Shown one piece after another: positions 4,893-62,151 of a DNA stretch of 64,000 nucleotides; positions within the stretch are counted from its first letter, which is position 1; the number at the start of each line of letters is the position of its first letter. The translations under genes were made by a program, and so were the position numbers. The DNA lies in contig JAWLHB010000012.1 of assembly GCA_041690595.1 (NCBI GenBank), positions 100,785 to 164,784 on the forward strand. Direction: 5' to 3'. Under the pieces are notes generated by a model that saw only the letters and a program-made list of their open reading frames with translations, was not told where the DNA came from and did no database searches. The stretch is from Lentisphaeria bacterium (GTDB taxonomy: Bacteria > Verrucomicrobiota > Lentisphaeria > JABSQK01 > JAWLHB01).

Positions 4893-6260
4893 ATGCCAAG
4901 CGTCGTGCTGCTCAGCGGGGATACCCCCGGCAAGAGAATCGAGCTGAAAGCGGGCGAAATCTATACGCTCGGCCGCCAGGAAGACTGCGCTATCTGCGTG
5001 GACAACGTGCCCGGCGTCTCGCGCCAGCATGCCCGCTTCCGGCAGGAGGATGGCAGCTGGCTGGTGGAGGATCTCGGCAGCCAGAACGGCATCTATTTCA
5101 ACAACCAGAAGCACGAACGCAAGCAGCTCGAGGATGGCGACGTCCTCTGGTTCAGCAATTTCAGCCTGCGGTATGAAAGCGCCAACGGCAATGCTCCCGG
5201 CAATGCGGCGGACACCGCCGCTCATCCACGCCATGGCGGCGCACCGCCCGCGGAGGTCGACATCGATCCCGAGCGCGTCCGGGAAGTCGGGCGGCTGATC
5301 ACCCAGGTGGAGATGGAATTCCGCAAGGTGATCGTTGGGCAGAAACAGGTTCTGGAAGAACTGCTGGTGGCGCTGCTGTCGAACGGGCACTGCCTGATGA
5401 TCGGCTTGCCCGGTCTGGCCAAGACGTTGATGATCAAGACGTTGAGCGACATTCTGGAGCTGAGCTTCAAGCGCATCCAGTTCACGCCCGACCTGATGCC
5501 CTCGGATATTATCGGGTCGGACGTGCTGGACGTGGATGAAGACACGGGACGGAAGTCCTTTCGCTTCATACGCGGCCCGATCTTCACCAACATGCTCCTC
5601 GCCGACGAGATCAACCGTACGCCGCCGAAGACACAGGCCGCGCTTCTCGAAGCCATGCAGGAGCGCCAGGTGACCGCCTCGAATCATGTCTTCCCGCTCC
5701 CTCAGCCCTTCTTCGTGCTGGCCACCCAGAACCCGCTGGAACAGGAAGGCACCTATCCCCTTCCCGAAGCACAGCTCGACCGCTTCATGTTCAACATCAT
5801 TGTCGAATATCCAAGCGAGAGCGAGGAAGAAGAGATCGTGCGGCAGACCACCGGCCGCAAGCAGGTGGAGCTGAATCACGTGATCAGTGCCCAGCAGTTG
5901 ATCGACATCCAGGCCATGGTGCGCGACCTGCCCGTCAGCCCGCACGTGATCAAATACGCGACCCGCCTCGCCCGCGCCACCCGCCCCAAGGATCGGCAGG
6001 CCCCGGATTACATCCGCCAGCATGTCGCCTGCGGCGCCGGCCCGCGCGCCGCCCAATTCCTGATACTCGGCGCCAAGGCCAAGGCTGTTCTCGAGGGCAA
6101 CCTCAACGTCAACTGTGACCACGTCCGCTCCCTGGCGCTCCCCATCCTGCGCCACCGTATCTTCACGAATTTTACGGCTGACTCGGAAGGCATCACCACC
6201 GACAAACTGGTGGAGAGCCTCATTCTCAACGTTCCCGAGCCAGGCCCCGGCGACTATTGA
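4893..6260 (+). CDS. FHA domain-MoxR family AAA+ ATPase fusion
   Basis: FHA: LGR...VSRQHA...DLGSQNG. MoxR: GLPGLAKT, RIQFTPDLMPSD, LLADEINR, ATQNPLEQEGTYPLPEAQLDRF. Confidence 0.92.
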   Translation: MPSVVLLSGDTPGKRIELKAGEIYTLGRQEDCAICVDNVPGVSRQHARFRQEDGSWLVEDLGSQNGIYFNNQKHERKQLEDGDVLWFSNFSLRYESANGNAPGNAADTAAHPRHGGAPPAEVDIDPERVREVGRLITQVEMEFRKVIVGQKQVLEELLVALLSNGHCLMIGLPGLAKTLMIKTLSDILELSFKRIQFTPDLMPSDIIGSDVLDVDEDTGRKSFRFIRGPIFTNMLLADEINRTPPKTQAALLEAMQERQVTASNHVFPLPQPFFVLATQNPLEQEGTYPLPEAQLDRFMFNIIVEYPSESEEEEIVRQTTGRKQVELNHVISAQQLIDIQAMVRDLPVSPHVIKYATRLARATRPKDRQAPDYIRQHVACGAGPRAAQFLILGAKAKAVLEGNLNVNCDHVRSLALPILRHRIFTNFTADSEGITTDKLVESLILNVPEPGPGDY

Positions 6261-7667: not shown

Positions 7668-10600
7668 TTAGCCCTTCTGAGATGGTGGCGGAGCATTCTT
7701 CAGGGCGCTCCAGAATTCACCGTTGGGCAACGCGTAGGGTCGAAACTTCTCGAATCGGCCACGGTTTTCATCGGCAAGAAGTGCCAGGTGAAGACCGAGC
7801 TTGGCCGCTTCGGGCTGGTCGATCAGCGAGGTGGAGTCAGTGACGCTCATCTGGAAGAGGACCTTGTAGGCAAAGGCATTCTGGGCGCGGCGACTGAGGG
7901 TGCGGGTGAGGTTGGCCGTGGAATCGCACCAAACAACCAGATGCAGCCCCAGTTCCGCGCCTTCGTTGATAAGCCGGTCGAGCAGCTTGTCGGGCGCTGG
8001 AGGTTTGTCCGAATCGCCGCTATAGCCGAAATCGTCTTCATAGCGGAACTGCCGGAAACGCTGCAGGCCGAAGATCACCAGGACGGCAGGTGGCTGATGC
8101 ACACGCTCCGCCTCGCGGGTGGTCAGCATCTCGCTGAGGCTCTTCAGTGTCTCGTCCACGTCACGATAGGCAACAACCTCCAGCGGCAGCTCGATCTTCT
8201 CGGCGACCTCCTTCAAACTCTCGGCTTGGGGCGCATCCGCGGGCGAGCCATCGATGAGCAGTACGCGAGGCAAGGGGTCACGATGAGCGGCCAGGCTGAC
8301 AAGAATGCCGGCCGTCAGCGATCGGGCTTCGGCGAGGCTCTGGCCGACCACGAGCAGGTGCTGGGCGGTCTGTGGTTCAAGGTCGGCGTGGACGGGTCCC
8401 TTGATGGTGTTGGGCGCCCCCAGCCACAGGCGCAGCGTCTCGCCCGTACGCGGCGTCTCGCCCCGCAACGACGCCATCAGCTTGCTGTTCTCGACGAGAT
8501 GCGCCGGGGCATTGCCCTCGAAGACGATAGGTGGCCGCGACACGTCGATCTTCTGCTCCCTGGCATGGTCCGCGACGCGGTGAAGATAGTCGTCGCGCTC
8601 CTGATCGGACAACCAGGCGACCTGAAAGGGGCTGTTTCCTTCGACCATGCCGGCGGCATCGTTGTAGATGGCTTCGCCGGGACGGTTGAGGAGGCGGGCC
8701 GCGGCATTGTCGTCACTGAGAATGAGATAGGAATCGGCCTCTGAGCATTGAAGCGCTATGCGAACGGTCATCTGGCCCATGGTGGTGCGGGCCAGGGAAT
8801 AGGCGCCACCGAGAGTCTGCGAGCCGAGGATGACGTGAATGCCGAAAGCGCGCCCCTGCCGGACAATGCGGTCAAGGAGCAGCGCCGACTCCTGGGAGAT
8901 GCGGTCATCCTCGGTGAACAGCTCCTGGAACTCATCCACGATGAGCAGGACGCGCGGCATGGGGTGATCGGGCGCCTGTTGGCGATAGGCAGAGAGATTC
9001 TGCACCTCGAGTTCACGGAAGCGCTCACCTCGCTTCTTCAGTTCCTCGTCGAGCCGGTGGAGGATCGAGAGTCCGAAATCGCGGTCCGACTCGATCGCGA
9101 CGGCGCGAACGTGCGGCAGGAGGCCACGGGCATAGATTTTGAATTCCACCCCCTTCTTGAAGTCGACCAGGTAGAATTCGACCTCATCGGGGCTGTACCA
9201 TAGGCTGAGGCTGGTGATGATCACGTGAAAGAGGGTCGACTTGCCGGAACCGGTCTTGCCCGCGATGATGGCGTGCTGAGAGGTGCCATAGCCAATGGCC
9301 ATCTCCTGGCGCTTGTTGGCGCCGGACTTGCCGATCGGGATGTCGAGGCCATCGGCCGAGCTGCGCGACCAGGTTTCTTCGGGCAGAGGCGCCACTGTTT
9401 TGTAGGAGACCTCCACGCGCAGGGCTTCTTCCACACATTCGCCCACCCGCTGCAGGATGGTGGTGAAAAGCTCCCGATCGGGCGGCTCTTCGGCAACCAG
9501 AGGGAGCGGCTCGAGAACATGATGGCGCCATTTGAGCTCGTCGTGCTCCAAGCTCAGGCAGACGGCGTTGCGCCGCAGTTGCACCATGTCGAAGCCCTTG
9601 GGCGTCGGTTCCCGGCGATCCTTGTGCAGGAGGACAAAGACGCCGCACCGCGCTCCGCTGCTGACGATGCTCGAGAGCCGTTGCGCCGCGCTTTCCGTGA
9701 AGTTGGCGGGAAAGTCGCAGATGACCACGAAGCGATACCGCTCGGCCAGTTCACCGGCCGACTCATTGTACTCGGCAATCGACTCGTATTCGTTGCGCAG
9801 GTACTTCTGGATGACCTTCTCCATGTGCTCGTTGATGTCCGCCAACTGCTGTTCGATATGGCGCGATTCCGTCCAGATGCGGCGTCCCACGAAGGACTCG
9901 TCGTAGTCGGCCAGGTGCATGAAGGCGGCAAAGCTCTGTCCGAGGCCAATGGGATCGATGATGGTGAAGCTGATGCGCCCCGGCGAGGAGTTGACGAGGA
10001 GGCGCAGCATGATCTGCTGGATGACGGCGATGGCGGGTTCGCGGGCGGTGCCGGCGGATTCGATGAGCAGGGAGCTGTCGGCCGGCACATCGAAGGTGGC
10101 AGGCAGATCATAGGTATAGGAACCGGGCAGCGGCAGCAGCTCGGGATTGGGGGAGCGGCCGGCAAAGGTGGGCAGATCGATGGGTAATCTGCCGAACGAG
10201 GCGGCGGGGGCGGCCTGTTGCGGCGGTCGCCAGGCGGCCCAGTCGATCGTGTCGAGAGGCGGAAACAACTCCCGGGCGGCGATTTCCAGATGGGCAAGCT
10301 CGTCGACCAGGGGTTTTGTCTTGGTCTGCCAATCGTTCACCAGCGTTTCCCAGGCACGATCGAGATCCTCCCGCTCCTTCTGGAGCTTGACGGCATGCTC
10401 GCGCTGCAGTGCCTCCTGTTCTTCCGGTTGGCGCTCGTGCAGTTCGGCGAGCTGTTCGACCGCCCGATCGCGTGCCCTGGCGAGAGCGGTTTCGCGGGCG
10501 CGGTCCAAGTGTGCTCGCGCCACGTCCAAGCGCCCATTGATCTCCTCCACCCGCTCGCGATGGCGTACCACGGCCTCTTCGACCTTGCCGTCATGCTCGA

Positions 10601-11615
10601 GCCTGCTCTCTTCCTCAGCCTTTTCTCGCCGTCTTTCCGCGGCGCTTTCCTGCTCACTGTAGCTGGCCTTCACCAACGCATCCGCCGCGAGATGAAGCCA
10701 ATGCGCCTGGCAGATACGCTCCCAGACCTCCAGAAGATCGGGCGCCAGGCGGCGCTGGTAGAGCTTGTACCAGGCCCACGGCAGCCCGAAGAGCACCACG
10801 ACCGGCATCAAGAGGGAGGCGATTCTCACCCATCCCGGCACCTCGAATATCCCCATCCACATGGCACCCGTGACGCCAAGTGCCAGCAGCGCCAGAATGA
10901 GCAGGGTCATGCCGGGAAGGCTCTTGATGGTTGCCATCAGGCCATGGCGCTGGCGGAGCGTAACGCGGCTCTCCTCCAGCTCGGTCAGCCGCCGCACCAG
11001 ATCCTCGATGGCGGCCTCCGGCGAGGGGTAGTCCGCATCGAAACCTGGGGCGTCCTCGATCGTCGGGAGGTCGGAAAGGGTGAGCTTGGCAAAGCGAGCG
11101 CGGCGCCGCATCATGTGTTCGAGCTTGGCGCGTAGCCCCGCCAGCTCGGAAAGCCGCGCCTGGCGCCGATTGTACTCTCGCGAAAGTGAGGTGTGGGCGG
11201 AGTTGAGATTGGTGCTGGTGCTCCAGACAGTGTGCTGGAAATTGGCCGCCAGCTTGTCCTTATCGACGTCGAGGGTGCTCTCGGACTCCTTGCGAAAGCG
11301 TTCGCCAAGTGCATCGATGCGGGCCAGGCGTCCGTCGAATCTCGCCTGCAGCTCCACTCTCTTCTCGCCCCAGAGAGCTTCAAGTTCGCGTGCATCGGCC
11401 TTCGCCTGGATCTCGAAATCTTCATGAGCCTCCGCGAGGCCTGTTTCAGCCCGCTGCGTAATCGTTCGCCGGTCGCGATCGAGTTTCTCGGAGGTGACGG
11501 AGAAGTCCCGCATGAGTTCGCGGAGGGAATTGAGGAGCTTGGCGATCTGCTCGTGTCCTGGCCATGGGGTCATGCGCGCATCCTTTGCATCGTCAACCAG
11601 CCACCTGTTGGGCAT
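7668..11615 (-). CDS. FtsK/SpoIIIE-family membrane ATPase, EccC/EssC-like (type VII-like coupling protein)
   Basis: Coiled coils and two TM helices, then IAGKTGSGKS Walker A, LVDFKKG, LLIVDEFQ Walker B and RQGRAFGIHVILGSQ. Flanked by degenerate ATPase-like domains; co-oriented and overlapping with the WXG100-like genes. Confidence 0.88.
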   Translation of the reverse strand: MPNRWLVDDAKDARMTPWPGHEQIAKLLNSLRELMRDFSVTSEKLDRDRRTITQRAETGLAEAHEDFEIQAKADARELEALWGEKRVELQARFDGRLARIDALGERFRKESESTLDVDKDKLAANFQHTVWSTSTNLNSAHTSLSREYNRRQARLSELAGLRAKLEHMMRRRARFAKLTLSDLPTIEDAPGFDADYPSPEAAIEDLVRRLTELEESRVTLRQRHGLMATIKSLPGMTLLILALLALGVTGAMWMGIFEVPGWVRIASLLMPVVVLFGLPWAWYKLYQRRLAPDLLEVWERICQAHWLHLAADALVKASYSEQESAAERRREKAEEESRLEHDGKVEEAVVRHRERVEEINGRLDVARAHLDRARETALARARDRAVEQLAELHERQPEEQEALQREHAVKLQKEREDLDRAWETLVNDWQTKTKPLVDELAHLEIAARELFPPLDTIDWAAWRPPQQAAPAASFGRLPIDLPTFAGRSPNPELLPLPGSYTYDLPATFDVPADSSLLIESAGTAREPAIAVIQQIMLRLLVNSSPGRISFTIIDPIGLGQSFAAFMHLADYDESFVGRRIWTESRHIEQQLADINEHMEKVIQKYLRNEYESIAEYNESAGELAERYRFVVICDFPANFTESAAQRLSSIVSSGARCGVFVLLHKDRREPTPKGFDMVQLRRNAVCLSLEHDELKWRHHVLEPLPLVAEEPPDRELFTTILQRVGECVEEALRVEVSYKTVAPLPEETWSRSSADGLDIPIGKSGANKRQEMAIGYGTSQHAIIAGKTGSGKSTLFHVIITSLSLWYSPDEVEFYLVDFKKGVEFKIYARGLLPHVRAVAIESDRDFGLSILHRLDEELKKRGERFRELEVQNLSAYRQQAPDHPMPRVLLIVDEFQELFTEDDRISQESALLLDRIVRQGRAFGIHVILGSQTLGGAYSLARTTMGQMTVRIALQCSEADSYLILSDDNAAARLLNRPGEAIYNDAAGMVEGNSPFQVAWLSDQERDDYLHRVADHAREQKIDVSRPPIVFEGNAPAHLVENSKLMASLRGETPRTGETLRLWLGAPNTIKGPVHADLEPQTAQHLLVVGQSLAEARSLTAGILVSLAAHRDPLPRVLLIDGSPADAPQAESLKEVAEKIELPLEVVAYRDVDETLKSLSEMLTTREAERVHQPPAVLVIFGLQRFRQFRYEDDFGYSGDSDKPPAPDKLLDRLINEGAELGLHLVVWCDSTANLTRTLSRRAQNAFAYKVLFQMSVTDSTSLIDQPEAAKLGLHLALLADENRGRFEKFRPYALPNGEFWSALKNAPPPSQKG

Positions 11616-11805
11616 GCTTGATCAGTTTTTCAAGTTCTTCGATGCCTTCGAGCGCGCGGCGGACATCCGGCCCCAGCGGCTGAAGGAAACGTCTCTCGAA
11701 CTCGATGCTCTTGACGTCCTGCCAGGTGTGAAGCGTGCGGTTCCACTGCTCACGAAGGTCGCGATGGGCCTCGTCCAGTTCATTTCGGGAGGTGCTCAGG
11801 CTCAT
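11593..11805 (-). CDS. Small WXG100-like protein (70 aa, central TWQD)
   Basis: Predicted helix-turn-helix hairpin with W-x-D followed by F (TWQDVKSIEF); overlaps both neighbours. Confidence 0.65.
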   Translation of the reverse strand: MSLSTSRNELDEAHRDLREQWNRTLHTWQDVKSIEFERRFLQPLGPDVRRALEGIEELEKLIKHAQQVAG

Positions 11806-12356
11806 GCTTTCCCCTTATCGTTCGAGGCAGGTTTCTCTTCCTCGTCCTCATCCGTCGGCGCGGAATCCGTATCTTCCGCATCGGCAAAGGCTTCTGAATA
11901 GTCGTCGAGGGTGTCGATGATGTTTCGGAGGTAATCGACTGCCTGTGGGAGATCCTGATCGACGTCGTTGGCAAGCTTGTTGCAGGCGGTGAGGTGCCTG
12001 CGGGCCTCGCCATCAAAATCGCGTATGAGCTGTCGTATGGCTACGACCTTCTGCTCGGCCTCCTTCAGCTGCCGGTCCAGCAGGTCGACCTGGCGGCGCT
12101 CCTCCAGTTGCTCCACCGGGGACTTGAAAAGCTTGGCGCCCAGGAGGTTTCCGCGCGCGTCGGCATGCTTGGTGCGGAGCCGTTTGACCTGATTCTGCCA
12201 GTGGGGCAGCCGATCCTGCTGGAGCCAGCCCATGGTGCGCGTGACCGCGCTGGACGACTCATCGAGGATGGCGCGCGTCCGCTCCATGAAGATCATGAGG
12301 TTTCCCCGAAAGCGACGCAGATCGTCGATCGAATAGACGCGTGCCTGCCTGGCCAT
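11802..12356 (-). CDS. Coiled-coil WXG100-associated protein (184 aa, acidic tail)
   Basis: N-terminus ARVYSIDDLRRF resembles the WXG100 start (AIVDPEELRRF). All-helical; sits within the operon. Confidence 0.7.
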   Translation of the reverse strand: MARQARVYSIDDLRRFRGNLMIFMERTRAILDESSSAVTRTMGWLQQDRLPHWQNQVKRLRTKHADARGNLLGAKLFKSPVEQLEERRQVDLLDRQLKEAEQKVVAIRQLIRDFDGEARRHLTACNKLANDVDQDLPQAVDYLRNIIDTLDDYSEAFADAEDTDSAPTDEDEEEKPASNDKGKA

Positions 12357-12368
12357 GATGCCTGCCTG

Positions 12369-12641
12369 TTAACGCTGTTTGAGATACTCTTCGGCGCGCT
12401 CGGCCTTGCGCATGAGATAAGGAACCTGCTCATGCGCTTCGATGACGAACTTGCCCAGCATGCGCATCGTCTGGTCGAAGGTTTCGGCGAACTTCACCTG
12501 TTCCTGATCCTTCCACGTATCGCCGAGTGCCTTGAAGCGCCCCTGCAGGCTGCTCATGCGGTTCTGCATCTCCTGCGACGCGCGATCGAGTTCCTGCGCG
12601 AAGCGTCTAAGTTCTTCGGGATCGACTATGGCTCTAGCCAT
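12369..12641 (-). CDS. WXG100 family (EsxA-like) protein
   Basis: 90 aa, VDPEELRRFAQEL N-motif, central LGDTWKDQEQVKF, AGGAGG RBS. Confidence 0.88.
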   Translation of the reverse strand: MARAIVDPEELRRFAQELDRASQEMQNRMSSLQGRFKALGDTWKDQEQVKFAETFDQTMRMLGKFVIEAHEQVPYLMRKAERAEEYLKQR

Positions 12642-19503: not shown

Positions 19504-20892
19504 ATGCTCCTTACAGTCTGCAATGGTTTGCACGAAGGCTGGACCATCCGTCTGGTGAAGGAGAGCTATTCGCTGGGTCGGAATCGTGACAACGATCTGA
19601 TCATGGTGGATCGCTGGATCTCCAGGCGCCATTGCCTCTTCAGCCAGAGCAACGGCCGCTGGCAGGTGATCGATCTGGGCAGTACCCACGGGGTCCGCGT
19701 TAACGGCACGCAAATTCGGGATCAGCATCTGCTGCGAGATGGCGACTCGATCGAGCTGGGCGAAGTGCGGTTGCAGGTGAACGATTCGCCGGATGCCGCG
19801 CCGCTTTCGGGGCTGGAGATGCCGAGCGTGCAGGAGCATCCGGCCGTGCTGCGCATCGAATCGGGTCCACAGGCAGGACTCGAGGTGCGGCTGGAAAACC
19901 AGACGTATACGGTCGGTCGGGTCGCCAAGAACGACATCACCCTTTCAGACCCGACGATATCGCGTCGTCACTGCCTGATCGGCCTGTCGAAGAGTGATTG
20001 GTACATACTGGATCTGAACAGCCGTCACGGGGTCCTCGTCAATGGGGAGTTGATCGAGGAGCGCCAGGTGCTGCATGGTGATGAAGCGGTGCAGGTGGGC
20101 GACATCCAGATGGCGTTGCGTTTTGTCTTCGATCCCCTGGCCGGTGAGGGGCAACGCAGTCGCAGCATCCCGCGGCCGCTGGTGCTCTCGGTCCGGGACG
20201 GACTGCATGAGGAGTGGGAGATACCGCTGATCCATCCCAGCTATACGCTTGGGCGCTCGCGCTGCAACGACATCATCCTGGCGGATCCATCGATTTCGCG
20301 CATTCACTGCCTCTTCGTCTATCATCGCGGGAATTGGACAGTCGAGGATCTGGGATCGAGCCTTGGGGTACTGGTGAACGGCAAGGCCATCGATACGAAG
20401 CAGCTCCTGCGAGGGTGCGAACAGCTGCGCATCGGCGACGTCAACATCCTCGTCAGGGATAGCTTTACGCCGGCAGCGGGCCAGACAGATTCCGTCGGCG
20501 ATCGCTCGAGCCAGAAGCGAGCCCGGCGCAAGCTGCGGATCATTCAGACCCTTCCGGTCGACATGGACAGCACATTTGTGTTTGATCGCGACCCAGACGA
20601 ATCCCCGCTGGCGGGTCTCGAAACGACGCGGCATGATGCGCCCATAGATCAGGATTCCGCCATGGATCAGACGATCTCGATCGATGGCCCAGGCAGGCGC
20701 CTGCGTGACGAGCATGAGATGAATGACACGGTTAATTTCGGGCGAACACCGCTGATCGATCCCAACCAGGCCATGCCGCTGGACAATGAAGAGTACATAA
20801 AGACCTACAGCATGCAGATGCCTGACGAGTTCCGGCAGTTGCGAGACCGCTACCGGCACGATTTCGGCCAGAAGGATAGAGACGACGACTGA
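19504..20892 (+). CDS. Protein with three tandem FHA domains and an acidic disordered tail
   Basis: Three copies of GR...ND...ISRxHC...DLxSxxGV.VNG. Confidence 0.9.
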   Translation: MLLTVCNGLHEGWTIRLVKESYSLGRNRDNDLIMVDRWISRRHCLFSQSNGRWQVIDLGSTHGVRVNGTQIRDQHLLRDGDSIELGEVRLQVNDSPDAAPLSGLEMPSVQEHPAVLRIESGPQAGLEVRLENQTYTVGRVAKNDITLSDPTISRRHCLIGLSKSDWYILDLNSRHGVLVNGELIEERQVLHGDEAVQVGDIQMALRFVFDPLAGEGQRSRSIPRPLVLSVRDGLHEEWEIPLIHPSYTLGRSRCNDIILADPSISRIHCLFVYHRGNWTVEDLGSSLGVLVNGKAIDTKQLLRGCEQLRIGDVNILVRDSFTPAAGQTDSVGDRSSQKRARRKLRIIQTLPVDMDSTFVFDRDPDESPLAGLETTRHDAPIDQDSAMDQTISIDGPGRRLRDEHEMNDTVNFGRTPLIDPNQAMPLDNEEYIKTYSMQMPDEFRQLRDRYRHDFGQKDRDDD

Positions 20893-26856: not shown

Positions 26857-27948
26857 ATGCGAAGCGGATATGCGCATTTGCCGCTACATGGCGGCAAGGC
26901 CCCAAGCTGGTTATTCAGCCGCATGGTGCGGCTGGCCAGAGAGATTGCGATACACGTCGTAAGCGAGTATGGGCCGGACGATCTTCTGCATCGGCTCTCG
27001 GATCCTCACTGGTTCCAGGCGTTCGGCTGCGTTCTCGGCTTCGACTGGCATTCAAGCGGGGTCACGACAACCACCTGCGGCGCCCTGAAGGAAGGGATCA
27101 AGGGGCTTCAGCAGGACTTGGGCTTCTTTGCCGGGGGCGGCAAGGGAGGCACCTCCAGAAAGACGCCACAGGAGATCGTAACGGCCTGTGAGATCACCGG
27201 TGACAATGCCGCCCCCCTCGTTCACGCGAGCAAGATGAGCGCCAAGGTGGACAGCGCGGCCGTACAGGACGGCTATCAGCTCTACCATCACTGCTTCTTC
27301 TTCACCAAGGGGGGCCGGTGGTGCGTGGTGCAGCAGGGAATGAACGATGCCACCGGGATGGCGCGGCGTTATCACTGGCTGGGGGAACCCGGCAAACGCT
27401 TCGATGTCGAGCCGCACAGCGCGATATGCTGCGATACGCGCTCCCCTACCCTCAATCTGGTTGCCGAAGAGAGCGAAGGGGTCCGCCGCACCTCCACCGA
27501 GTTGGCCTCACAGCCATCGCTGGAGACCCTCTTTGCCTTGGAGCAACTGCCGACGCTGAGGCTGCCGAAGCGCCACGGGATCGAGATGTCCGACATTGAG
27601 CCGGCGTTTGTGCGGAAGGTTCTGCTGCAGACGTACGAGCAGCCGCCGGAGAACTTCGAGCAGTTGCTTGGCATGCAAGGGGTTGGCGCCAAGACGCTGC
27701 GGGCGCTGACGCTGGTCTCGGAACTGATTTACGGTGAACGCGCCAGCATCCGCGATCCCGCGCGCTTTTCCTTCGCACACGGCGGCAAGGATGGCATCCC
27801 CTTTCCGGTCGACAAGGATACCTACGAAAGGACCATCCAGGTGCTGCATGGCGCGGTCGACCGCGCAAAGATCGATCGAACTGAAAAGGTGGACGCACTC
27901 AAGAGGTTGGCAAGGCTGCAATGGAAGGCGGAGATCGAGCAGTCCTGA
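26857..27948 (+). CDS. DUF763 domain protein
   Basis: LPLHGGKAP, GFDWHSSGVTT, QDGYQLYHH, HhH-like GVGAKTLRAL and FSFAHGGKDG. Confidence 0.9.
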   Translation: MRSGYAHLPLHGGKAPSWLFSRMVRLAREIAIHVVSEYGPDDLLHRLSDPHWFQAFGCVLGFDWHSSGVTTTTCGALKEGIKGLQQDLGFFAGGGKGGTSRKTPQEIVTACEITGDNAAPLVHASKMSAKVDSAAVQDGYQLYHHCFFFTKGGRWCVVQQGMNDATGMARRYHWLGEPGKRFDVEPHSAICCDTRSPTLNLVAEESEGVRRTSTELASQPSLETLFALEQLPTLRLPKRHGIEMSDIEPAFVRKVLLQTYEQPPENFEQLLGMQGVGAKTLRALTLVSELIYGERASIRDPARFSFAHGGKDGIPFPVDKDTYERTIQVLHGAVDRAKIDRTEKVDALKRLARLQWKAEIEQS

Positions 27949-28748
27949 TTCGAACCGGAGGCTTGGGTGACTTCGTCCTGACGCTGCCCTTTCTGGCGGA
28001 GCTGCGCCGTCGTTTCGCACATGTGACGGTCATCACCCACAGACGTTATTGGGAGTTGATTGCGGGTGACGGGCTGGCAGACGATTGGCTGAGCGTGGAC
28101 AATAGGTCGATGTCGACGCTGTGGAGCATTCCGGAGGGAGAGGTGGCGCGGCGACTGGCCGGGGCCGAGCTTTTCCTTGCGTGGAAGGACCCTGACGGCT
28201 CGTTGGCACGCGGCTTGGCGCGGGCGGGCGTCCTGCATACGTGCTGGTTGGAGTCTCGACCGGGGACGGCGCCGCATGTCACGCTTCGAATGTTTGCGGC
28301 AGCGGGTTGGGAACCACCAGCGGGGCTGCTCGAGCAACCGGTGCTGGCCCGTGCGACCGCCCCCCGCACGGGCGTATTGTGGCTACATCCTGGCAGCGGC
28401 GCCAGCGAGAAGAACGCGCCGGTGGCCTGGTTTGCCGCGCGAGCCAAGGCATGGCTTTCGCGTACGGGGCTGAATGGCGTCATCATCTCACTGGGAGAAG
28501 CGGATCTTGCCTTGGAAGCACCGATGCGGGAGTTGTTCGCGGGGCTGCCGCATGAACGGCTCATCATGCCCTCCCTGCGCGACCTGCGCCGGCGCCTTGC
28601 GGGCGAAGCCTTGCAGCTGATCGGCAACGACACGGGCGTCACCCACCTGGCCGCCGCCCTCGGGGTGCCAGTGGAGGTGGCGTTTCGCTGCACTGACGAC
28701 GAAGTGTGGCGCCCGATCGGTCGCCACGTCACCATCGTGCATCCATGA
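27921..28748 (+). CDS. Glycosyltransferase family 9 (heptosyltransferase-like)
   Basis: GGLGDFVLTLP, LHPGSG and IGNDTGVTHLAAALG. Confidence 0.88.
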   Translation: MEGGDRAVLIRTGGLGDFVLTLPFLAELRRRFAHVTVITHRRYWELIAGDGLADDWLSVDNRSMSTLWSIPEGEVARRLAGAELFLAWKDPDGSLARGLARAGVLHTCWLESRPGTAPHVTLRMFAAAGWEPPAGLLEQPVLARATAPRTGVLWLHPGSGASEKNAPVAWFAARAKAWLSRTGLNGVIISLGEADLALEAPMRELFAGLPHERLIMPSLRDLRRRLAGEALQLIGNDTGVTHLAAALGVPVEVAFRCTDDEVWRPIGRHVTIVHP

Positions 28749-30999: not shown

Positions 31000-31473
31000 T
31001 CAGCTTTCGAAGACGATATAGCGTTCGACGGGCCGCTTCTGGAAATGCTCTTGAACCTGATCGAAGTCCAGTTCGATTTTGGGATCCGAGGGAATCTGGG
31101 TGAAATCATCCTCGGAATAGTCCCGGCATTCGCCTTCCATGACGATCTGCGAGATGCCGAGAGCAGGGAGGCTGACGTCTTCCGCGGTAGGCCCGGGCAG
31201 GCCGTCCAACGTCTCGAGAACCTTGCGCGTGTCAAGCCGATCCATGATATGGGCATTGAGGAGGACGCGGAGGCGGTGGTTCTTGATCTTGTTCAGTGCC
31301 TGCTGCAGGTCGGCGATGCACTCGGCGCGTTCCTCTTTCGGCAAGACGTCCAGTTCGGCGGTGATGCCACGCAGCTGGTCTGAGATCTCCTGCAGGGTGG
31401 CAAAGGGGTCGATCTGGTACTTGTCGTAGATGGACGGCTGGCTGAACGGATTGAGATTATCTGGTATTGCCAT
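31000..31473 (-). CDS. Hypothetical protein with weak J-domain-like N-terminus
   Basis: ATG overlaps the end of the TPR gene. IYDKYQIDPFATLQEI...QQALNKIKNHRLR resembles J-domain helices but lacks HPD. Confidence 0.65.
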   Translation of the reverse strand: MAIPDNLNPFSQPSIYDKYQIDPFATLQEISDQLRGITAELDVLPKEERAECIADLQQALNKIKNHRLRVLLNAHIMDRLDTRKVLETLDGLPGPTAEDVSLPALGISQIVMEGECRDYSEDDFTQIPSDPKIELDFDQVQEHFQKRPVERYIVFES

Positions 31474-34400
31474 CGCTCTTCGGCTTGTTGAGGTTGATGG
31501 TACGAGCCGTGGCGTAAGCCTTCTCGAACTGCTGGCTGAGGTTGATACCCCGTTCGGCGTATGCAGCGGGATTTCGGCATGCTTCGCGCAGGAGCCGCAG
31601 ATTGTCATTCAGCTTCTCCAGATCCACTCCGGGCGGAATGCTGGCCAGGATCTTGTCGATCAAGTCGCCAGCTTCTGAGAAGCTGCCGCGTACCCCGACC
31701 TGTACGGCTTCGAGCAGCTCGGTGTTGAACTGGCGCTTGGCGCGCTGATAATCAGCGGGGGTAGCATAGATTGTACGCGTCGTGCGATAAAGTTCGAGCT
31801 GAGACTGCGCGTTGTCATGATCGAGGCCGAGCACGTCCGCGATCTGGACCTGCAGACTGAGTGAAGCAATGGTAAACTCCCAGCTGTTCCAGACCGGGTT
31901 GGTCTTGTCGATGCCGCGCAGATACTGCTCGACCTTCTCGCCAAGCCGCCGATAGTAGACCTTCAACTTGTTATCCTTGTCGGCCACTATCCGCAGCAGA
32001 TGGAGATGACGTTGCGTGCCGACTTCATCGCCGGCAGAAAGGCAGTGCAGCGCCTGGCCGATGAAGGCATTGACGAAAAGCTGGTCCTTGCAGGCCTGGT
32101 TGATCTTTTCGATGTCTTCGTTGGCGAAAGGGCGAAGCTTGTTGTCGTCATCGCTGAAGCGCGCCTGCGCAAGATTCCAGTAGGAGGGATTGGCGAAGAT
32201 GAACTGGTACCAGAAATCGATACTGCGCTGCCAGTTATCCCGCTTCGTCTCGTCGCCGGCGATCTCATTTTCCACCTGGTAGGCGCGCCGCAAATGGAGA
32301 ACAGCCAGATTATGCAGGATGAAGTAGTTGAGGTACTCGTCCTCCATCTTGCCGAGGTCCTGGGTCAGCGTGTCGATCAGGTCATTGGGGGCGAGGAGAT
32401 TTTCGTCCCGCTGCAGTTGGTCACTGATATCCCAGGCGTTGAGGATGGTGACGACTTCGCGAGGCGGCTTGGCAATGTCACGCAGGGCGAGTTTCGCCTC
32501 CTTCAGCTGGTTCTGCTTGAGGTGTCGGATGGCGCCCTGGGCAGCGAGATAGGTAAAGAGCTTGCGATCACGCTCGGATTGGTCGGCAAAGGGGCGCATG
32601 AACTCGAGTGCCTGCTGGTGATCGTTGTTCTGCAGACAGGCGATGGCCTGCATGTAGAGGGCCTTGGAGCGCTTCTCGTCCGGCAGGTCCTTCGCCAGAG
32701 TGGCGATGGTGGCATGATCCTGCAACTGGCAGAGATAATAGATCCTGGCAAGGAGTATCTTGTCCCGCAGATAGGCGTCGCCGGCGGTTTCGCCAGCCGG
32801 CAGGGAGACGCGGGCGAGGCTGCGCTCGGCGTCCTGAATCTTGCCCCGGCGAGCATTCATGAAGGCCTGAATGGTGACGAGGCCGGCCGTCAGATGATCG
32901 GGACGGTCGCTCATGCCGGAGAAGCTATTCATCGCCTCCCGCGCCTGCTGCTCATGACCACATCCAAGTTCAGCAATGATCAGATGGTAGCGGTAGCGGG
33001 CATTGGCGCCATCGGCCTCGATCAGTGAACTCAGCAGCGACGCGGCGTCGGCATACTGTCCTTGGAAGAGCTGGCAGAGGGCGAGATAGTATTGGCAACT
33101 CTGATAGCGCGCCTTGTCCTTGGCTTCCAACTGCAGTTCCGCGCAGCGCGCCTGGGCCTCGACGTACTCGCCCTGCTCGAGCCAGTTGATCACCATGCGG
33201 AAACGTGCTTCCTCGACGAAATCCGCCACGGATCGCAACTCGGCATCCGGAAGCGGGTTCTCGCTCACGAACTCGAAGCATTGGTGCGCCATTTTGTAGG
33301 CGTGCTGCTCGAAGAGCATGACGCCGATGGAGTACATGGCGCGGGTGGCGGTTTCCGCGGACCAGTCCTTGCTCTGGGCCGTACGGCCAAGGATCTTGAT
33401 CAGCGTCTGTTCGCAGCGCCGCAGCTCCCGTCTGGCAGCGAGGGAGTAGGCATAGAGGAAGAGGAACCAAGGGGAACTCTCGCCGGCATCCTCGGCGATG
33501 GCGAAGTAGTGGAGCGAGGTATCACTGTCGCTGCGGAAGAAGGCGATATAGCCAATGCGACGTGACGCCCACCGGCGGAAGGCTGGTTCGGTGACCGCTT
33601 TCTTGAGGTGGTCGATCGCCCGTTCCGGCGCCTTCTCCTGCAGGAGTACGCCGAGGAAGTAGTTGCCAGCGGGGTCTTCCGGCTTAAGTTCCACAATGCG
33701 CTTGAAGGAGGCCAGAGCAGCTTCGCCATCGTTCTTCGACAGGTGTATCTGGCCGATGCCGACCAGGGCAGGCGCGAAATCCGGATTCAGTTCCAGCGCC
33801 TTGGTATAGAAGACTTCCGCCTTCTGCAGTTCATCGCGCTTGAAGAGGATGTTGCCCTGCAAGGTGAGGGCGGAAGGATAACAGGGGTCATCGCTCTTGA
33901 TCACGGCGGCGACCTTGAGCGCCTTGAGGTGTTGCCCCATCTCGGCGAAGGTGGAGGCGAGATAGTAGATGGCCTCGCTGTCGTTCGGATATTTCTTGAG
34001 GAGGGCCTGATACCACTTGGCGGCCCGTTCACCCTCGCCTGCCCGGCCAAAGGCGCGAGCGCCCCAGTAGAGGATGTCCCGGTCCTTGTGCTTGGCCGCT
34101 TCGAAACACTTGTAGGCGGAAACGTACTTCTCCGTCTCGAAGAAGCACCGGCCCAGCTTGTACCAGAGCTGCTCATCCTGGCCATTGACCGCGAGCGACA
34201 CCTTGAGATGCGGGATGGCCTCCTCGTAGTCCTGCCGCTGGTAGGCGAGGTCGCCGACGATCTGCCGCACGTCCACATCCTTGGGATTGTGCTCGATGTA
34301 GGCGGTGAGATGATGCCGCGCTTTGTCGCTGTTGCCCTGCAGATGGGCGATCATGCCAAGCTGGTGCACAACCATGGCGTGGTGCTTGTTCCAAATGGCG

Positions 34401-37400
34401 TCGCGGCTCTCGGCGGGCGTCTGTTCAAGTTCCTGCAGGATGCTTTGCAGTTGCAGCGAGCCTTTTACCGGATCCCGTTCGGATCTGCGCATGGCGACAT
34501 GGATCGCGAAGAGCTTGCGGTCGTTCATCAGGGCAACCATGTTGGCCAGCTCACGCGCATGGGCAGCGAGCTTCCGGCGGGCCGTTTCGGAGGCAGCCGT
34601 GTTGAGGGGCGTATCGGAAAGAACCCAGAGTAGGGCTCGCTCCAGCATCAACCGCCGTTCATAATACACCAACGGAAAGAATCGGTAGGTCGTGCAGCCA
34701 TAGCCGTTGAAGAGAATGCCCGGCAGTACAAAGGCGAGTGCAAACGAGTTGGCGTGCGAGATGTCCGACAGGAGCGACGCCACCAGAAAGAGGAGAAAGA
34801 CACAGAAGACAGTGAAGAAGTGGTGCAAACGATATTCGAGTTCATCCCTCTCCCGCCCACGCCGAATGGCAAAGACAAAGAAGCTGGACCAGATGGCGAT
34901 CCAGGCGACCAGCGCGGCCCAATCCAGACCGCCGCGGATGCGCAAGGGCAGGCGGATCTTCTCCATGCGCAGTTCCCACTGCTTGTCGTCCCGCAACTGG
35001 CTGATGTTACGCTCTTCGGCAATGGCTGGAAAGTCGCGCTGGAGCTGCTCATAGATGGTAAAAGCGCGCTCAACCTGGCCGAGGGCGAGATAATTCTCGG
35101 CGCGATTCATCATCAGCGAGACGAACTTCTGCTGGGTCACGGGCAGTTGGGTATTGTCGGCAAGCTCGGGGAGGCTCAGAACATCCGTGGCGGTGTCGAG
35201 AATATCGGTGGAGACGGTGGCCGCGGCGGCTTCTGGGGTGGTGTTGGTGGGGTTGGTGAGGTTGTGCAGGTGATTGCGCACGATGATCAAGAGCTGGTGG
35301 TGCAACTGAATCTCTTCGGTCAAACCGGGATACTGCTCGTGCATGCCGCGGTAAAGCGCAAGAGCCTGCCTGGATTTGCCGTCCTGCCAGGTCTCATTGA
35401 GAATGCCGACCAGCTTCTTGCCGAGGACCTGAACAGGAGGAAGCAGGCGCAGGCGGCCAGGGAAACGCTGGCTGTACCGATCGTACACTTGCATCAGTTC
35501 CGGAGAATCGAGCGGATCGTGAACATTGGTGTACTGGCGGCTGGCAAGGCTGAGAATCCTGGCAACCAGTTGGTGCGTTTCGGCGAACTGGGGTGCGCTC
35601 AGAGCGATCTCTTCATAGTTGGCGATGGCCTCCGTGATACTGCCTGCCGCTACCTGCTGTTCCGCCAACTTGAGTCTGGCCCGCGCGAGCTGCGCGTTCA
35701 CGTTGTGCCTGGTGGCAAAAGTCGTGTACGGCTCGTCGAGCAGGCTGGCGTAGACACTCATGGCGGTGGTCAAGTCGCCCTGCTCTTCATACCGTTGGGC
35801 TATCTCCATTTTACGGCTGAGCAGCTTGTAGCCAAGGCTTTCACCGATCTGCCTGCTGTCGAGCTGCTGGAGCACTTTCTGAATGGATTCGGCTGCCCGC
35901 ATATACTCGCCATCATGGATGAACTTATCGACGAAACTGATATAGATGGCCTGGTTATGCTCATCGGCCAGCCCCTCGCCCCGCTTCTCCAGATCCTCGC
36001 TCGCCTCGCGAAAAATGGCTTCCCTGTTGTTGCTGAGGAAGGCTTCCCAATGGCTGATTGCCGCGGCAGGCAAGGTGCCCTTGGCCGCCTCGACGGCGGC
36101 CCCCAACTCGAGGACGAGGTTCCATGCCTTGAGCGGTTCCTTGTGGCGCAGCGCCCGCAGTTCATCGTACTGGCGCAGATACAGCTCATAGCGTCGGACC
36201 GCATCGACATCCCCGCGAAGCTGACGCACGGATATGCCCAGCGCGGTGAGTTGCTTGCCCTCCTGATCGATGAAGTCGGAGCTGCTGTCGATGAGAGATT
36301 GCAGCTCTTCACGAGGGAAACGTTCGGGATGAATGAGGTTGTCCTGTATCTGCAGAGCCTGGTTGCGCAGTTGCTCGGCAATGGCCCCCGTGGCAACCGC
36401 ACTCTCTTCCATGCCGGCCTCTTTCAGCGCCTCACTTGCCTGGGCAAAAGTTTCGGCCGCCCTCCCAAAGCGCTTGCCCTGATTGTGCTGCCAGCCGTCA
36501 TCGTACAACTGCTTGACTTGCCGGAGCAGGAGCACTCGCTGCGCCGTCTCGTCAAGCGCCTGGCGGTAGGAAGCGAGCATCGTGTCGAGACGGTCCACAT
36601 GCTGCTGGCGTCCCTCGCCGAAAGTGGCATCGCGGATCATGGCAAGACCGGGAAAAATCGTACGCTCGACCGTCTGACGAAGCTCGTTATACGCATCGTC
36701 GGAGAACTGCAGCTGTCCCGCAGCATCGAGCAGAAGAATCTGCTTGGAGACCTCGGGTAGCTGATCCGCCTTGTTGGAGGCTACGGTGATGATCCCTTCC
36801 AGAAGCCTGGCTTGTTCGATGTCGATCAGGGGGCTGACACCGGCTCCCTTGGCGAGAGTTTGCAGAAGGCTGACAACAGGCTCGGGCTTGAGCGTATCGC
36901 TGTAGGCTTCCAGCACCTTGTCCTGCAGGCGGGTCACCGTGGCCGTCATCAAGTCCCCAAGGATCTGATGGCTGTTGACGCGCTCCTTGCGAGCGAGAGG
37001 GGTATACTCGGGGATGCTGTTGAGGGCACGCTGGTAGGCAATCAGGGCATGCAGCGCCTCTTCATCCGAAACCGCCTGCCCGGCCTCGTGCTGTTCACGT
37101 AGCGTCTGGATGGCGGCGGCCAGCTTGAGAAGCGCGATCGTCGGCTCGAGTGAACCGTACTCTTCGCGATAGTAATTGACGGCATGGCGCAGGGCGTCCT
37201 TGTGCCTGGCGCTGACGACGGCGGAATTGAGTTGGGGTTGCAGCCGCTGCTCGAAGTCGGCGATCATACTGCGCAGAGTCCCCAGATCGTTCTCCACCCG
37301 GAGGAAGCTGTTCGAGACAACCCACTGCGCCATCAGGTTGAGCAGCTCGTTGATCCGCATCGACTCGGCGATCATGCCGGGGGAGACGGAGATGCGCCCG

Positions 37401-37645
37401 ATCGGCACCTGCTGCACACCCTCAGGGGCGGCGAATACGACATGGGACGGCAGTCGGCGCACCTCGACTCCCTGCAGGTGCTTGCCGTCCGCCAGTATGA
37501 TGTTGCCAATGGCGTTTTCCGCGCCTCCCGCCGGGGCGGCGATCAGCAACGCAAATGCAACGGCAACCACCGAGTGACAGAGGAGGAGAATAGGTTGAGC
37601 CGCGGGAAAGATTCTACGCATCATGGTGTTCTTGGACGCGCGCAA
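31457..37645 (-). CDS. Giant (~2060 aa) transmembrane TPR-repeat protein
   Basis: Signal peptide, about three central TM segments, many TPR units (e.g. YTKALELNPDFAPALVGIGQI). Exact start uncertain. Confidence 0.88.
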   Translation of the reverse strand: MRASKNTMMRRIFPAAQPILLLCHSVVAVAFALLIAAPAGGAENAIGNIILADGKHLQGVEVRRLPSHVVFAAPEGVQQVPIGRISVSPGMIAESMRINELLNLMAQWVVSNSFLRVENDLGTLRSMIADFEQRLQPQLNSAVVSARHKDALRHAVNYYREEYGSLEPTIALLKLAAAIQTLREQHEAGQAVSDEEALHALIAYQRALNSIPEYTPLARKERVNSHQILGDLMTATVTRLQDKVLEAYSDTLKPEPVVSLLQTLAKGAGVSPLIDIEQARLLEGIITVASNKADQLPEVSKQILLLDAAGQLQFSDDAYNELRQTVERTIFPGLAMIRDATFGEGRQQHVDRLDTMLASYRQALDETAQRVLLLRQVKQLYDDGWQHNQGKRFGRAAETFAQASEALKEAGMEESAVATGAIAEQLRNQALQIQDNLIHPERFPREELQSLIDSSSDFIDQEGKQLTALGISVRQLRGDVDAVRRYELYLRQYDELRALRHKEPLKAWNLVLELGAAVEAAKGTLPAAAISHWEAFLSNNREAIFREASEDLEKRGEGLADEHNQAIYISFVDKFIHDGEYMRAAESIQKVLQQLDSRQIGESLGYKLLSRKMEIAQRYEEQGDLTTAMSVYASLLDEPYTTFATRHNVNAQLARARLKLAEQQVAAGSITEAIANYEEIALSAPQFAETHQLVARILSLASRQYTNVHDPLDSPELMQVYDRYSQRFPGRLRLLPPVQVLGKKLVGILNETWQDGKSRQALALYRGMHEQYPGLTEEIQLHHQLLIIVRNHLHNLTNPTNTTPEAAAATVSTDILDTATDVLSLPELADNTQLPVTQQKFVSLMMNRAENYLALGQVERAFTIYEQLQRDFPAIAEERNISQLRDDKQWELRMEKIRLPLRIRGGLDWAALVAWIAIWSSFFVFAIRRGRERDELEYRLHHFFTVFCVFLLFLVASLLSDISHANSFALAFVLPGILFNGYGCTTYRFFPLVYYERRLMLERALLWVLSDTPLNTAASETARRKLAAHARELANMVALMNDRKLFAIHVAMRRSERDPVKGSLQLQSILQELEQTPAESRDAIWNKHHAMVVHQLGMIAHLQGNSDKARHHLTAYIEHNPKDVDVRQIVGDLAYQRQDYEEAIPHLKVSLAVNGQDEQLWYKLGRCFFETEKYVSAYKCFEAAKHKDRDILYWGARAFGRAGEGERAAKWYQALLKKYPNDSEAIYYLASTFAEMGQHLKALKVAAVIKSDDPCYPSALTLQGNILFKRDELQKAEVFYTKALELNPDFAPALVGIGQIHLSKNDGEAALASFKRIVELKPEDPAGNYFLGVLLQEKAPERAIDHLKKAVTEPAFRRWASRRIGYIAFFRSDSDTSLHYFAIAEDAGESSPWFLFLYAYSLAARRELRRCEQTLIKILGRTAQSKDWSAETATRAMYSIGVMLFEQHAYKMAHQCFEFVSENPLPDAELRSVADFVEEARFRMVINWLEQGEYVEAQARCAELQLEAKDKARYQSCQYYLALCQLFQGQYADAASLLSSLIEADGANARYRYHLIIAELGCGHEQQAREAMNSFSGMSDRPDHLTAGLVTIQAFMNARRGKIQDAERSLARVSLPAGETAGDAYLRDKILLARIYYLCQLQDHATIATLAKDLPDEKRSKALYMQAIACLQNNDHQQALEFMRPFADQSERDRKLFTYLAAQGAIRHLKQNQLKEAKLALRDIAKPPREVVTILNAWDISDQLQRDENLLAPNDLIDTLTQDLGKMEDEYLNYFILHNLAVLHLRRAYQVENEIAGDETKRDNWQRSIDFWYQFIFANPSYWNLAQARFSDDDNKLRPFANEDIEKINQACKDQLFVNAFIGQALHCLSAGDEVGTQRHLHLLRIVADKDNKLKVYYRRLGEKVEQYLRGIDKTNPVWNSWEFTIASLSLQVQIADVLGLDHDNAQSQLELYRTTRTIYATPADYQRAKRQFNTELLEAVQVGVRGSFSEAGDLIDKILASIPPGVDLEKLNDNLRLLREACRNPAAYAERGINLSQQFEKAYATARTINLNKPKSDGNTR

Positions 37646-49788: not shown

Positions 49789-50601
49789 CTACCCCTCGTC
49801 CCCATCCCGGTCCGTCCGCGGGACGCCCGGCGTGATGCCGCGCTTGCTGCCGCGCACGAAGTCGATGAAGGCGGTGATGGCCGGCTCCTCCGGATACTTC
49901 GCCGTCAACCTATCCAGCGCGGCGCTCTGGTTCAAGTCGCTGAAGAAATAGATCTTGACGGCATCCTTGATCGCCGTGCGCTGCGCCAGAGAATAGCCGG
50001 CGCGGCGAAGGCCCACCACGTTCGGGCCGTAGACGCCATGCTCGCGAACCATATCGCGGCCGACAATGACATAGGGCGCCGCATCCTGGTTGAGCTGCAC
50101 GGCGCCACTCACCATGGCGATCGTGCCGATGTGGACGAACTGATGAACACTGACGCGGGCACTGAGGAAGGCACGCTCGCCAATGTGCACATGGCCGGCC
50201 AGCAAGGTGTTGTTGGCGATGATGACGCGATCGGCAAGCTGGCAGTTGTGGGCGACGTGGACAAAGGCCATCAGCATGCAGTTGTTGCCGATGGTGGTGG
50301 CGCTCCCCTCCGTCGTTCCGCGGTGGATGGTGACGTACTCGCGGATGATGCAATCTTCACCGATCCGGCAGTACGTCTCGCGCTCCTGGAAGTCGTAGTC
50401 CTGCGGCAAGTCACCGACCACGGCGCCGTTGTGGATGGTGGTCCGCGCCCCGATCGTCGTGTAGCCGCTGATATGACAGTGGGGGCCGACGCGACAGCCG
50501 TCGCCGATCGTCACCTCGCCCTCGATGACGGTATAGGCCCCGACGCTGACCTCTTCGCCCAGGCGCACCTGTTCACCAATGACCGCTGTTGGATGGATCA
50601 T
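49789..50601 (-). CDS. lpxA: Acyl-ACP--UDP-N-acetylglucosamine O-acyltransferase
   Basis: IHPTAVI, hexapeptide repeats, IREYVTIHRGT, HVAHNC, VHQF and NVVGLRR. Confidence 0.95.
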   Translation of the reverse strand: MIHPTAVIGEQVRLGEEVSVGAYTVIEGEVTIGDGCRVGPHCHISGYTTIGARTTIHNGAVVGDLPQDYDFQERETYCRIGEDCIIREYVTIHRGTTEGSATTIGNNCMLMAFVHVAHNCQLADRVIIANNTLLAGHVHIGERAFLSARVSVHQFVHIGTIAMVSGAVQLNQDAAPYVIVGRDMVREHGVYGPNVVGLRRAGYSLAQRTAIKDAVKIYFFSDLNQSAALDRLTAKYPEEPAITAFIDFVRGSKRGITPGVPRTDRDGDEG

Positions 50602-58782: not shown

Positions 58783-58850
58783 ATCAAGCCATCGATCGAT
58801 CACATCCGTTCCAATGCATCGCATCTCTGTAGTATAGACCGATGATAATT
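58783..58850. repeat. ~68-bp imperfect direct repeat, copy 1 (3' end of 58800 gene)
   Basis: atcaagccatcgatcgatcacatccgttccaatgcatcgcatctc...gatgataatt recurs at ~59860-59927. Confidence 0.9.
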
Positions 58851-59264: not shown

Positions 59265-59322
59265 TTCGTATACTTCGTCGCATCGCTTTGTTTTCATGAC
59301 TGGTCTTGCGGCCACCAGGAAC

Positions 59323-59787: not shown

Positions 59788-59859
59788 TACATGACCTCGC
59801 ACCTGATGCGAAGTTAAAAGGTTCAATGTGGATTTCATCAAGCTGTTCGCTGCACAACC

Positions 59860-59930
59860 ATCAAGTCATTGATCGATCACATCCGTTCCAATGCATCGCA
59901 TCTCTCAAGTATAGCCCGATGATAATTTTC
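59860..59930 (-). pseudogene. C-terminal remnant of a paralog of 58800..59264 (repeat copy 2)
   Basis: Encodes ENYHRAILERCDALERM* versus DNYHRSILQRCDALERM* in the intact gene. Confidence 0.8.
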
Positions 59931-59999
59931 GAACTTTCTCGAGTTCGCTCCTTTCTTGTGCCAGGTGACGGTGGCGGCTGTGGTTGCTGGCTGATGCGG

Positions 60000-61037: not shown

Positions 61038-61109
61038 TTTACCACCTACGGGGTTCGCTCCTTTCTTGTGCCAAGTGACGGTGGCGGCTGTGGTTGCTGG
61101 CTGATGCGG

Positions 61110-62143: not shown

Positions 62144-62151
62144 TTTACCAC

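Follow-up and report, generated by a model that had tools for sequence, protein, structure and literature searches.

A stretch of 64 000 nucleotides from a Lentisphaeria bacterium (contig JAWLHB010000012.1 of assembly GCA_041690595.1; here called the window, whose positions are used throughout) carries a compact operon of four tightly coupled minus-strand genes at 7668–12641. The genes, designated A to D, encode a WXG100 protein, a long helical hairpin, a truncated WXG100-like protein and an ATPase with three FtsK-type domains, and all four lie where a preliminary description of the window had placed them. The module is very probably the branch, in the Planctomycetes–Verrucomicrobia–Chlamydiae (PVC) group, of the 'mobile type VII secretion system (T7SS)' family, whose ATPases are active in the middle domain only. 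The preliminary description had proposed an unrecognised third type of WXG100 system, a claim that falls, since the architecture appears in Zhang 2012 (PMC3482391) and Bell 2024 (PMC11090510) and types T7SSc to T7SSj have already been named. What is added to the known family is a payload-free, anchor-optional PVC branch, of which no earlier description was found in the literature searched. Judging from its sequences, the operon appears to act like a type VII targeting module together with its motor.

Known type VII systems require five or more subunits, and both the route of WXG100 proteins across the membrane and the standing of the EccC/EssC helices as a pore are still debated. The family treated here comprises four genes with a single live ATPase site, and it includes natural pairs that differ in having or lacking a membrane hairpin, or in having or lacking a nuclease, so that the pore question can be tested directly. 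The family was already in print in 2012, and the surprise is correspondingly limited.

Gene products and family placement

Gene A (12369–12641, minus strand) encodes 90 aa and is the best conserved of the small subunits. In a hidden Markov model (HMM) check its product scored 42.5 bits against PF06013 (cut-off 27.3), as its earlier assignment to the WXG100 proteins had led one to expect, and its best sequence match in the PDB is Helicobacter pylori HP0062 (E 6e-8). The hinge of A is W-x-D, as in HP0062, versus the W-x-G of the family, although the Pfam cut-off is still passed. W43 and D45 are invariant in 46 of 46 A sequences, and identity among 45 relatives is 42–60%. Gene C (11593–11805, minus strand; 70 aa) encodes a truncated WXG100-like protein with the same hinge, W28 and D30 being invariant in 47 of 47 sequences, and in most relatives a Cys stands at the C-terminus. 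By itself C has no Pfam match. The profile of the 47 C-family sequences has Staphylococcus aureus EsxA as its top PDB match (E 0.004) and aligns with the A profile at a probability of 63% (hhalign), in agreement with the preliminary description.

Gene B (11802–12356, minus strand; 184 aa) had been described as a helical protein, and AF2 indeed predicts a long antiparallel hairpin of about 160 aa (helices 6–77 and 80–163; predicted local distance difference test, pLDDT, 91), followed by a 24-aa acidic tail. B matches no Pfam family above cut-off, LXG included, and no catalytic domain was found in it; its profile aligns weakly with that of A (probability 19%). Fold searches with the B model led to no assignment as LXG, PspA/ESCRT-III or YscO: Foldseek gave no match at E 0.001, and the VIA search returned generic coiled coils only (top Z 11.6, root mean square deviation 11.6 Å over 178 residues).

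Gene D (7668–11615, minus strand) encodes 1315 aa, or 1301 aa if the start is at 11573; the database copy (P0001) has 1301 aa, which fits this second-Met start, preceded by AAGGA. A and B are spaced by 12 nt, B and C overlap by 4 nt, and C and D overlap by 23 nt, an overlap that the second-Met start would turn into a 19-nt gap. Each of the four genes is present as a single copy in the genome, and the operon is similar in G+C content (60–63%) to the window around it. A promoter and terminator scan gave nothing exceeding shuffled sequence. From its N-terminus D consists of a helical region (1–230), two hydrophobic helices (at about 238 and 263, within about 238–281), a further helical region to about 450 and three FtsK/RecA-type domains (D1–D3). 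The PF01580 match covers residues 760–934 (112 bits), and the Walker A (786–793) and Walker B motifs are found in the middle domain only; a single GxxxxGK[ST] is present in 38 of 38 D homologues, the P-loops of D1 and D3 being degenerate.

The AF2 model of D residues 406–1315 contains three alpha/beta domains (mean pLDDT 71, predicted template modelling score only 0.40), and Foldseek placed EccC (4nh0) first with a full-length alignment (E 3e-31), EssC also being among the best matches. The EccC-like character attributed to D earlier is thus upheld for the fold, but D is not EccC or EssC proper: it stays below the curated cut-offs for EccC (TIGR03924, 121 bits versus 509; TIGR03925, 113 versus 347) and EssC (TIGR03928, 113 versus 778), and a Pfam scan found no FHA domain in it. 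In a tree of the active domain (D2), the PVC, TerY-linked and plasmid ATPases form one clade (SH-aLRT 99) apart from EccC, EssC, FtsK and TcpA; this is a quick IQ-TREE analysis with few outgroup rows, long branches and four stray D3 fragments.

Zhang 2012 defined the 'mobile T7SS' by a solo WXG protein and a YueA-like ATPase with three FtsK domains, of which the middle one alone is active, in planctomycetes, verrucomicrobia and other diderms (PMC3482391, Table 1 note 6). The three FtsK-type domains, the Walker A and B motifs in the middle one only and the adjacent solo WXG100 protein are all matched in the window. The passages concerned amount to one sentence, which describes neither the order of the genes nor B and C proteins, and neither an anchor in the membrane nor a payload. 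Bell 2024 described an island form of the EssC-like cassette (Type III-A CoCoNuT/TerY-P), whose ATPase is without transmembrane helices, and cited Anantharaman 2012 for a stand-alone version (PMC11090510). That cassette has in common with the window a middle-active three-domain ATPase with an N-terminal coiled coil, two WXG100-type proteins and an intervening coiled coil, in the same order. In the cassette, however, the coiled coil carries a D-ExK nuclease as a fusion and a small immunity-like gene comes next, whereas the A-B-C-D operon has neither; vWA, CARF, PP2C and kinase genes flank the cassette, whereas the operon of the window stands alone and its D has two hydrophobic helices.

In H. 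pylori, WxG plus FtsK has been called a minimal T7SS (Uchiyama 2016; PMC4978471), and the HP0062/HP0066 cluster (PMC3397514) has a W-x-D WXG100 hairpin dimer adjoining an FtsK-domain gene, like A and D. The related locus on a Helicobacter plasmid (L101) differs from the window in having a WHH nuclease in the B slot, then a SUKH immunity gene, and a shorter ATPase of 823 aa. Types T7SSc to T7SSj were named by Garrett 2024 from Gram-positives only (PMC11217815). T7SSa (EccC) and T7SSb–j (EssC/TsxC) share with the window a WXG100 partner and tandem FtsK-type domains behind a two-helix anchor, but they have four NTPase-fold domains and extra subunits and are confined to Gram-positives in that account, whereas D has three domains, one Walker A motif and a helical N-terminus of 200 aa, and falls in a separate clade. 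By the features tested, the module is not T7SSa, T7SSb or a CoCoNuT cassette.

The island form itself was found at three loci, L102 (Caballeronia), L108 and L110 (two genomes of the host's class), and plasmid searches gave five relatives with the full architecture. In the island form the genes encode vWA, A, a coiled-coil protein of 436–442 aa whose C-terminus is of nuclease type, small proteins of 110–125 aa and 76–82 aa, and D; vWA, PP2C and kinase genes lie 3' of D, and the ATPases of all three loci have no hydrophobic helix. Over its whole length the B profile aligned with the hairpin at the N-terminus of L102-type nuclease fusions (probability 57%, E 1e-4), a match that gives only moderate support because coiled coils inflate such scores. 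At that moderate level, B may be the same carrier as in the mobile fusions, minus the payload. The C profile and the 76–82 aa island-form protein in the same slot aligned at a probability below 1% (three-sequence profile), so that the two are at most putative homologues.

Several divergent relatives were also met. L106, a sister locus of L107, has the stand-alone form beside yajC-like and thiG-like genes. Among the variants L115, L116 (G041) and L117 (G105), one type consists of a pair of small genes for helical proteins, a hairpin of 180 aa and an ATPase of 1255–1269 aa, in one case beside vWA and PP2C genes, and another has two WXG100-like genes and an 836-aa ATPase. Two Rhodococcus plasmids (L103, NZ_CP126457.1; L126, NZ_CP070617.1) carry the same ATPase family; one of these ATPases has a TerD-like N-terminal fusion and lies near terD, and the other lies behind Hsp70, TPR and GrpE genes.

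Inheritance, payload and membrane hairpin in the PVC branch

The PVC loci were obtained by an alignment search of species genomes, of which the best 80 of at least 497 confirmed relatives were kept, so the sample leans to close relatives. A locus search with D alone retrieved nothing from genome contigs, and a word-index search with B found B itself only. Nearly all the sampled relatives are titled Planctomycetota or Verrucomicrobiota; odd titles (Bifidobacterium, Acidoferrum) fall inside a verrucomicrobial clade and may be mislabelled bins. Gene order was scored by HMM searches in those 69 loci whose sequence extends 1500 nt or more upstream of D, 11 further loci being cut by contig ends. The order A-B-C-D is conserved, as the preliminary description required, in 62 of the 69; the remaining seven comprise four C-D, one A-B-D (with an unscored 73-aa open reading frame, ORF, in the C slot), one B-C-D and one D alone. 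Recurrence on this scale argues that the operon is not a product of chance. No recurring fifth gene was seen, the next commonest neighbour family being present at 9 of 84 loci (about 10 kb, crude ORF calls, the caller having sometimes taken antisense frames, as in one neighbour cluster).

The genes are found together in a genome even where the operon is split. When A was absent beside D, it was found elsewhere in all five such genomes tested (one of these cases being a contig edge); B adjoined the displaced A in two of them, and D was present in five of five genomes picked for having A. In the only same-order relative with A (G402), A and a 285-aa B (L109:8584–9713) lie apart from D, on another contig. 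In one verrucomicrobial family 44 of 61 genomes carry the module, and in family f9 all eight do; the B profile gave 2567 clusters at E 1e-10. The D tree (FastTree) largely follows host taxonomy. The window's own copy is loosely placed near phycisphaeran rows, so that transfer into the host's lineage may have occurred. Among viral contigs only six weak single-domain FtsK matches were obtained, and an A-only locus search gave none. We infer that the PVC branch represents old, vertical retention with many losses, in which the genes are kept after operon splits; in looking stably inherited it differs from the mobile system of Zhang 2012.

Nearly all relatives of B end without a recognizable domain. 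Among 69 of them, 62 end in a low-complexity tail of 5–85 aa, six have an Imm33-like domain (five of the six at or above cut-off; L017, L018, L042, L056, L060 and L088, with P0137 and 12 more such carriers) and one is truncated at a contig end. Of the 3287 B-profile matches, the best 150 include 15 longer than 280 aa, of which 13 are Imm33-like and two have no Pfam match. No nuclease was found on B in the 69 relatives or in these best 150 of 3287 matches, and a dedicated search for longer B forms gave none at E 0.001, which is weak evidence. Neither the window operon nor the PVC loci have an immunity gene between B and C. As a separate observation, one subclade fuses B to the Imm33-like immunity domain, not to a toxin; and at L054:3199–3800 an inserted Gp49-like/HI1420 toxin–antitoxin-like pair separates B from C.

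The predicted membrane hairpin of D (about residues 238–281; 10773–10904, minus strand; boundaries approximate, from 19-residue hydropathy windows) is present at the tip of the coiled coil in 78 of 84 PVC ATPases, the window's D included; at the corresponding helix position EccC forms its pore (PMC11217815). In the other six it has gone by in-frame deletion (three bins titled Prosthecobacter and three of planctomycetes), and five of these six loci keep the A-B-C-D order intact. The six hairpin-less D proteins do not form one clade (approximately unbiased test, p 5e-6; four changes, 28 rows), in a test whose group was defined by the trait itself and whose 28 rows were chosen after the FastTree result. 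A family-wide search within the verrucomicrobial family in which 44 of 61 genomes carry the module gave 8 of 29 assessable loci without the hairpin; the loci came from the top 30 matches of a query that itself has no hairpin, and they overlap with the three found before, so the fraction is not a frequency. In the planctomycete clade, hairpin-bearing rows are nested among hairpin-less ones (FastTree), for which either several losses or a regain may account. The hairpin has been lost in at least two separate lineages.

Hairpin-less D proteins, among them all those of the family-wide search, keep a short, conserved Gly/Phe/Lys-rich tip (hydrophobic moments 0.29–0.51), which is probably amphipathic and may resemble the membrane-targeting helix of MinD. 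Loss of the hairpin in at least two lineages with the operon intact makes an export pore built by D itself doubtful. The literature searched holds no experimental study of the family, in line with the preliminary statement that its Gram-negative homologues had been noted but were functionally uncharacterised, and no report of the hairpin losses; subscription journals and supplements may contain one.

Anchor, pore and possible function

Tentatively, and with a little less than even confidence, we favour a membrane-tethered motor that loads or releases A-B-C helical rods at the cytoplasmic side of the inner membrane; the complex, the ring, the location and the function of A-B-C-D we infer. In the LXG-Lap secretion signal (PMC10801868), a long helical domain is joined by two small WXG100-like partners, and by analogy A and C would pair along the hairpin of B to give a rod. 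The lengths are compatible with this idea, A and C together having 160 aa and the core of B about 160 aa; LXG domains carry toxins, whereas B lacks an LXG match. As in the FtsK/EccC family, D would form a ring, which a long coiled-coil stalk of about 166 residues (as a continuous helix, up to about 25 nm in length) would tether to the inner membrane on its cytoplasmic side. The two dead domains of D would bind the rod and the middle domain would spend ATP to load, thread or release it. The output would be controlled rod assembly or release on the inner membrane, in envelope stress handling or remodelling.

The hairpin is read here as an anchor and not as a pore because a short amphipathic tip can take its place and because the operon is not accompanied by any further gene for a membrane or outer-membrane protein; an anchoring, cytoplasmic-face role is favoured because a pore made of D helices should not be lost repeatedly with the rest intact. 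The family also suggests that planctomycetes and verrucomicrobia have an envelope function not studied so far. A more far-reaching version, which we consider distinctly doubtful, is that a type VII-derived toxin carrier was domesticated early in PVC bacteria into a non-secretory membrane machine, a stalked and membrane-tethered ATPase ring assembling and stripping WXG100 hairpin polymers on the inner membrane, as a functional analogue of ESCRT-III/Vps4 made from unrelated parts. In that event the natural hairpin-less versions would show that EccC-type motors can work without a pore, and the four genes would offer a minimal system for testing WXG100 proteins and motor alone.

A number of points weigh against the tethered motor. 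Most PVC ATPases have the two hydrophobic helices, the best fold match of D is EccC, and the hydrophobic moments of the hairpin-less tips are only moderate. WXG100 proteins have been secreted wherever tested (PMC11217815), and the prior descriptions lean to secretion (PMC3482391, PMC11090510). Nuclease-fused forms of B may lie further down the 3287 matches. Distribution is patchy as well: across phyla the B profile was found in 12 of 401 genomes and the A profile in 36 of 301, and only 1 of 14 genomes of the host's order has the module. This patchiness at phylum level also indicates that the module is not a core function.

The preliminary description had left the choice between export to the periplasm and a non-secretory role, and the evidence leans to non-export without deciding the matter. 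In a minimal secretion system the D hairpins would assemble into a hexameric pore, unless the WXG100 rods themselves provided a conduit, and the middle ATPase domain would drive A-B-C through the inner membrane to the periplasm, with or without an Imm33-like tail on B. The hairpin in 78 of 84 members and the closeness of the D fold to EccC speak for this, as do the resemblance of A-B-C to an LXG domain accompanied by a pair of small partners (PMC10801868), the Imm33-like domain on some B proteins, which looks like a passenger, and the term stand-alone secretion system applied to such loci (PMC4978471, PMC11090510). However, on at least two occasions the hairpin disappeared while the operon stayed whole, no conserved fifth gene was seen at the 84 loci, and the genome encodes no second B-like protein. 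Moreover, EccB, EccD, EssA and EssB, reported as absent from the window, have no match in the whole genome either (97% complete; the EccB and EccD search had positive controls); EccE and MycP are absent within the operon and its flanks, no genome-wide search having been made for either. We consider export, the chief rival of the tethered motor, rather unlikely on balance, but it keeps some weight because most members, the window's D among them, retain the helices, function may have shifted in the hairpin-less lineages and the rods might open a path for themselves.

Less probable still is a stand-alone anti-phage or stress-suicide device, in which D would sense a phage product or damage and free hairpins that disturb the host membrane. 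The nearest sister form does belong to TerY/CoCoNuT islands that also encode CARF, PP2C and kinase proteins, and the distribution among phyla is patchy. Nevertheless, the PVC loci lie amid unrelated housekeeping-type genes with no recurring defence neighbour (among the part of the neighbours that is annotated), the PADLOC match is limited to the generic FtsK domain, and the module is nearly always single copy and taxonomically coherent. In addition, one genome (G412; L107, L108, C1) combines the stand-alone form, anchored in the membrane, with the TerY/CARF island form and its nuclease fusion, which suggests that the two have different jobs.

It is very improbable that the operon is what remains of a mobile toxin cassette in decay, with its nuclease gone and little activity left: the payload is absent and the operon is split or partial in 7 of 69 loci, but D retains about 50% identity over 900 residues across phyla, with invariant Walker motifs and intact frames, the genes are kept after operon splits and the B clusters are numerous. 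Equally improbable is DNA transport by D, as a conjugation coupling protein or a chromosome segregation FtsK to which the small proteins would be accessories, a role suggested by the PF01580 match and by database labels such as 'DNA segregation ATPase': the genome carries a separate canonical FtsK, FtsK/TcpA translocases have a single motor domain whereas D has an EccC-like layout of three and, as the preliminary description assumed, groups with neither, and no recurring relaxase or mating-pair genes lie nearby.

Host genome and neighbouring genes

The host is a lipopolysaccharide (LPS) diderm. The lpxA and GT9 genes noted earlier are both confirmed in the window, as an LpxA-like protein at 49789–50601 (PF13720, 61 bits) and a GT9 protein at 27921–28748, and LpxC and BamA are encoded in the genome. 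In the trees, members of the host's phylum group with rows labelled Verrucomicrobiota, and the host is accordingly taken to be a probable PVC organism. One PF08817 match (YukD-type, ubiquitin-like) above cut-off lies on a different contig. Its operon (L105:8070–10993; G000:C47, about 62069–64992) also encodes a membrane FHA protein, a prokaryotic RING protein and an E2-like protein with a Cys-rich tail, and thus resembles a bacterial ubiquitination system; owing to this context the YukD-type protein was set aside as a candidate for a missing EsaB, and no link between the two operons was seen.

The A-B-C-D operon is flanked by a PHP-like gene and a ceramidase-like gene. An FHA-MoxR AAA fusion (4893–6260) and a triple-FHA protein (19504–20892) are encoded close to it, and the survey of neighbours at 84 loci showed that these two FHA genes are not kept beside the operon in relatives. 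At 58800–63500 the window has a G+C content of 47–52% and several minus-strand ORFs without a Pfam match, which may represent an acquired island. A TPR-repeat protein of 2062 aa is encoded at 31457–37645.

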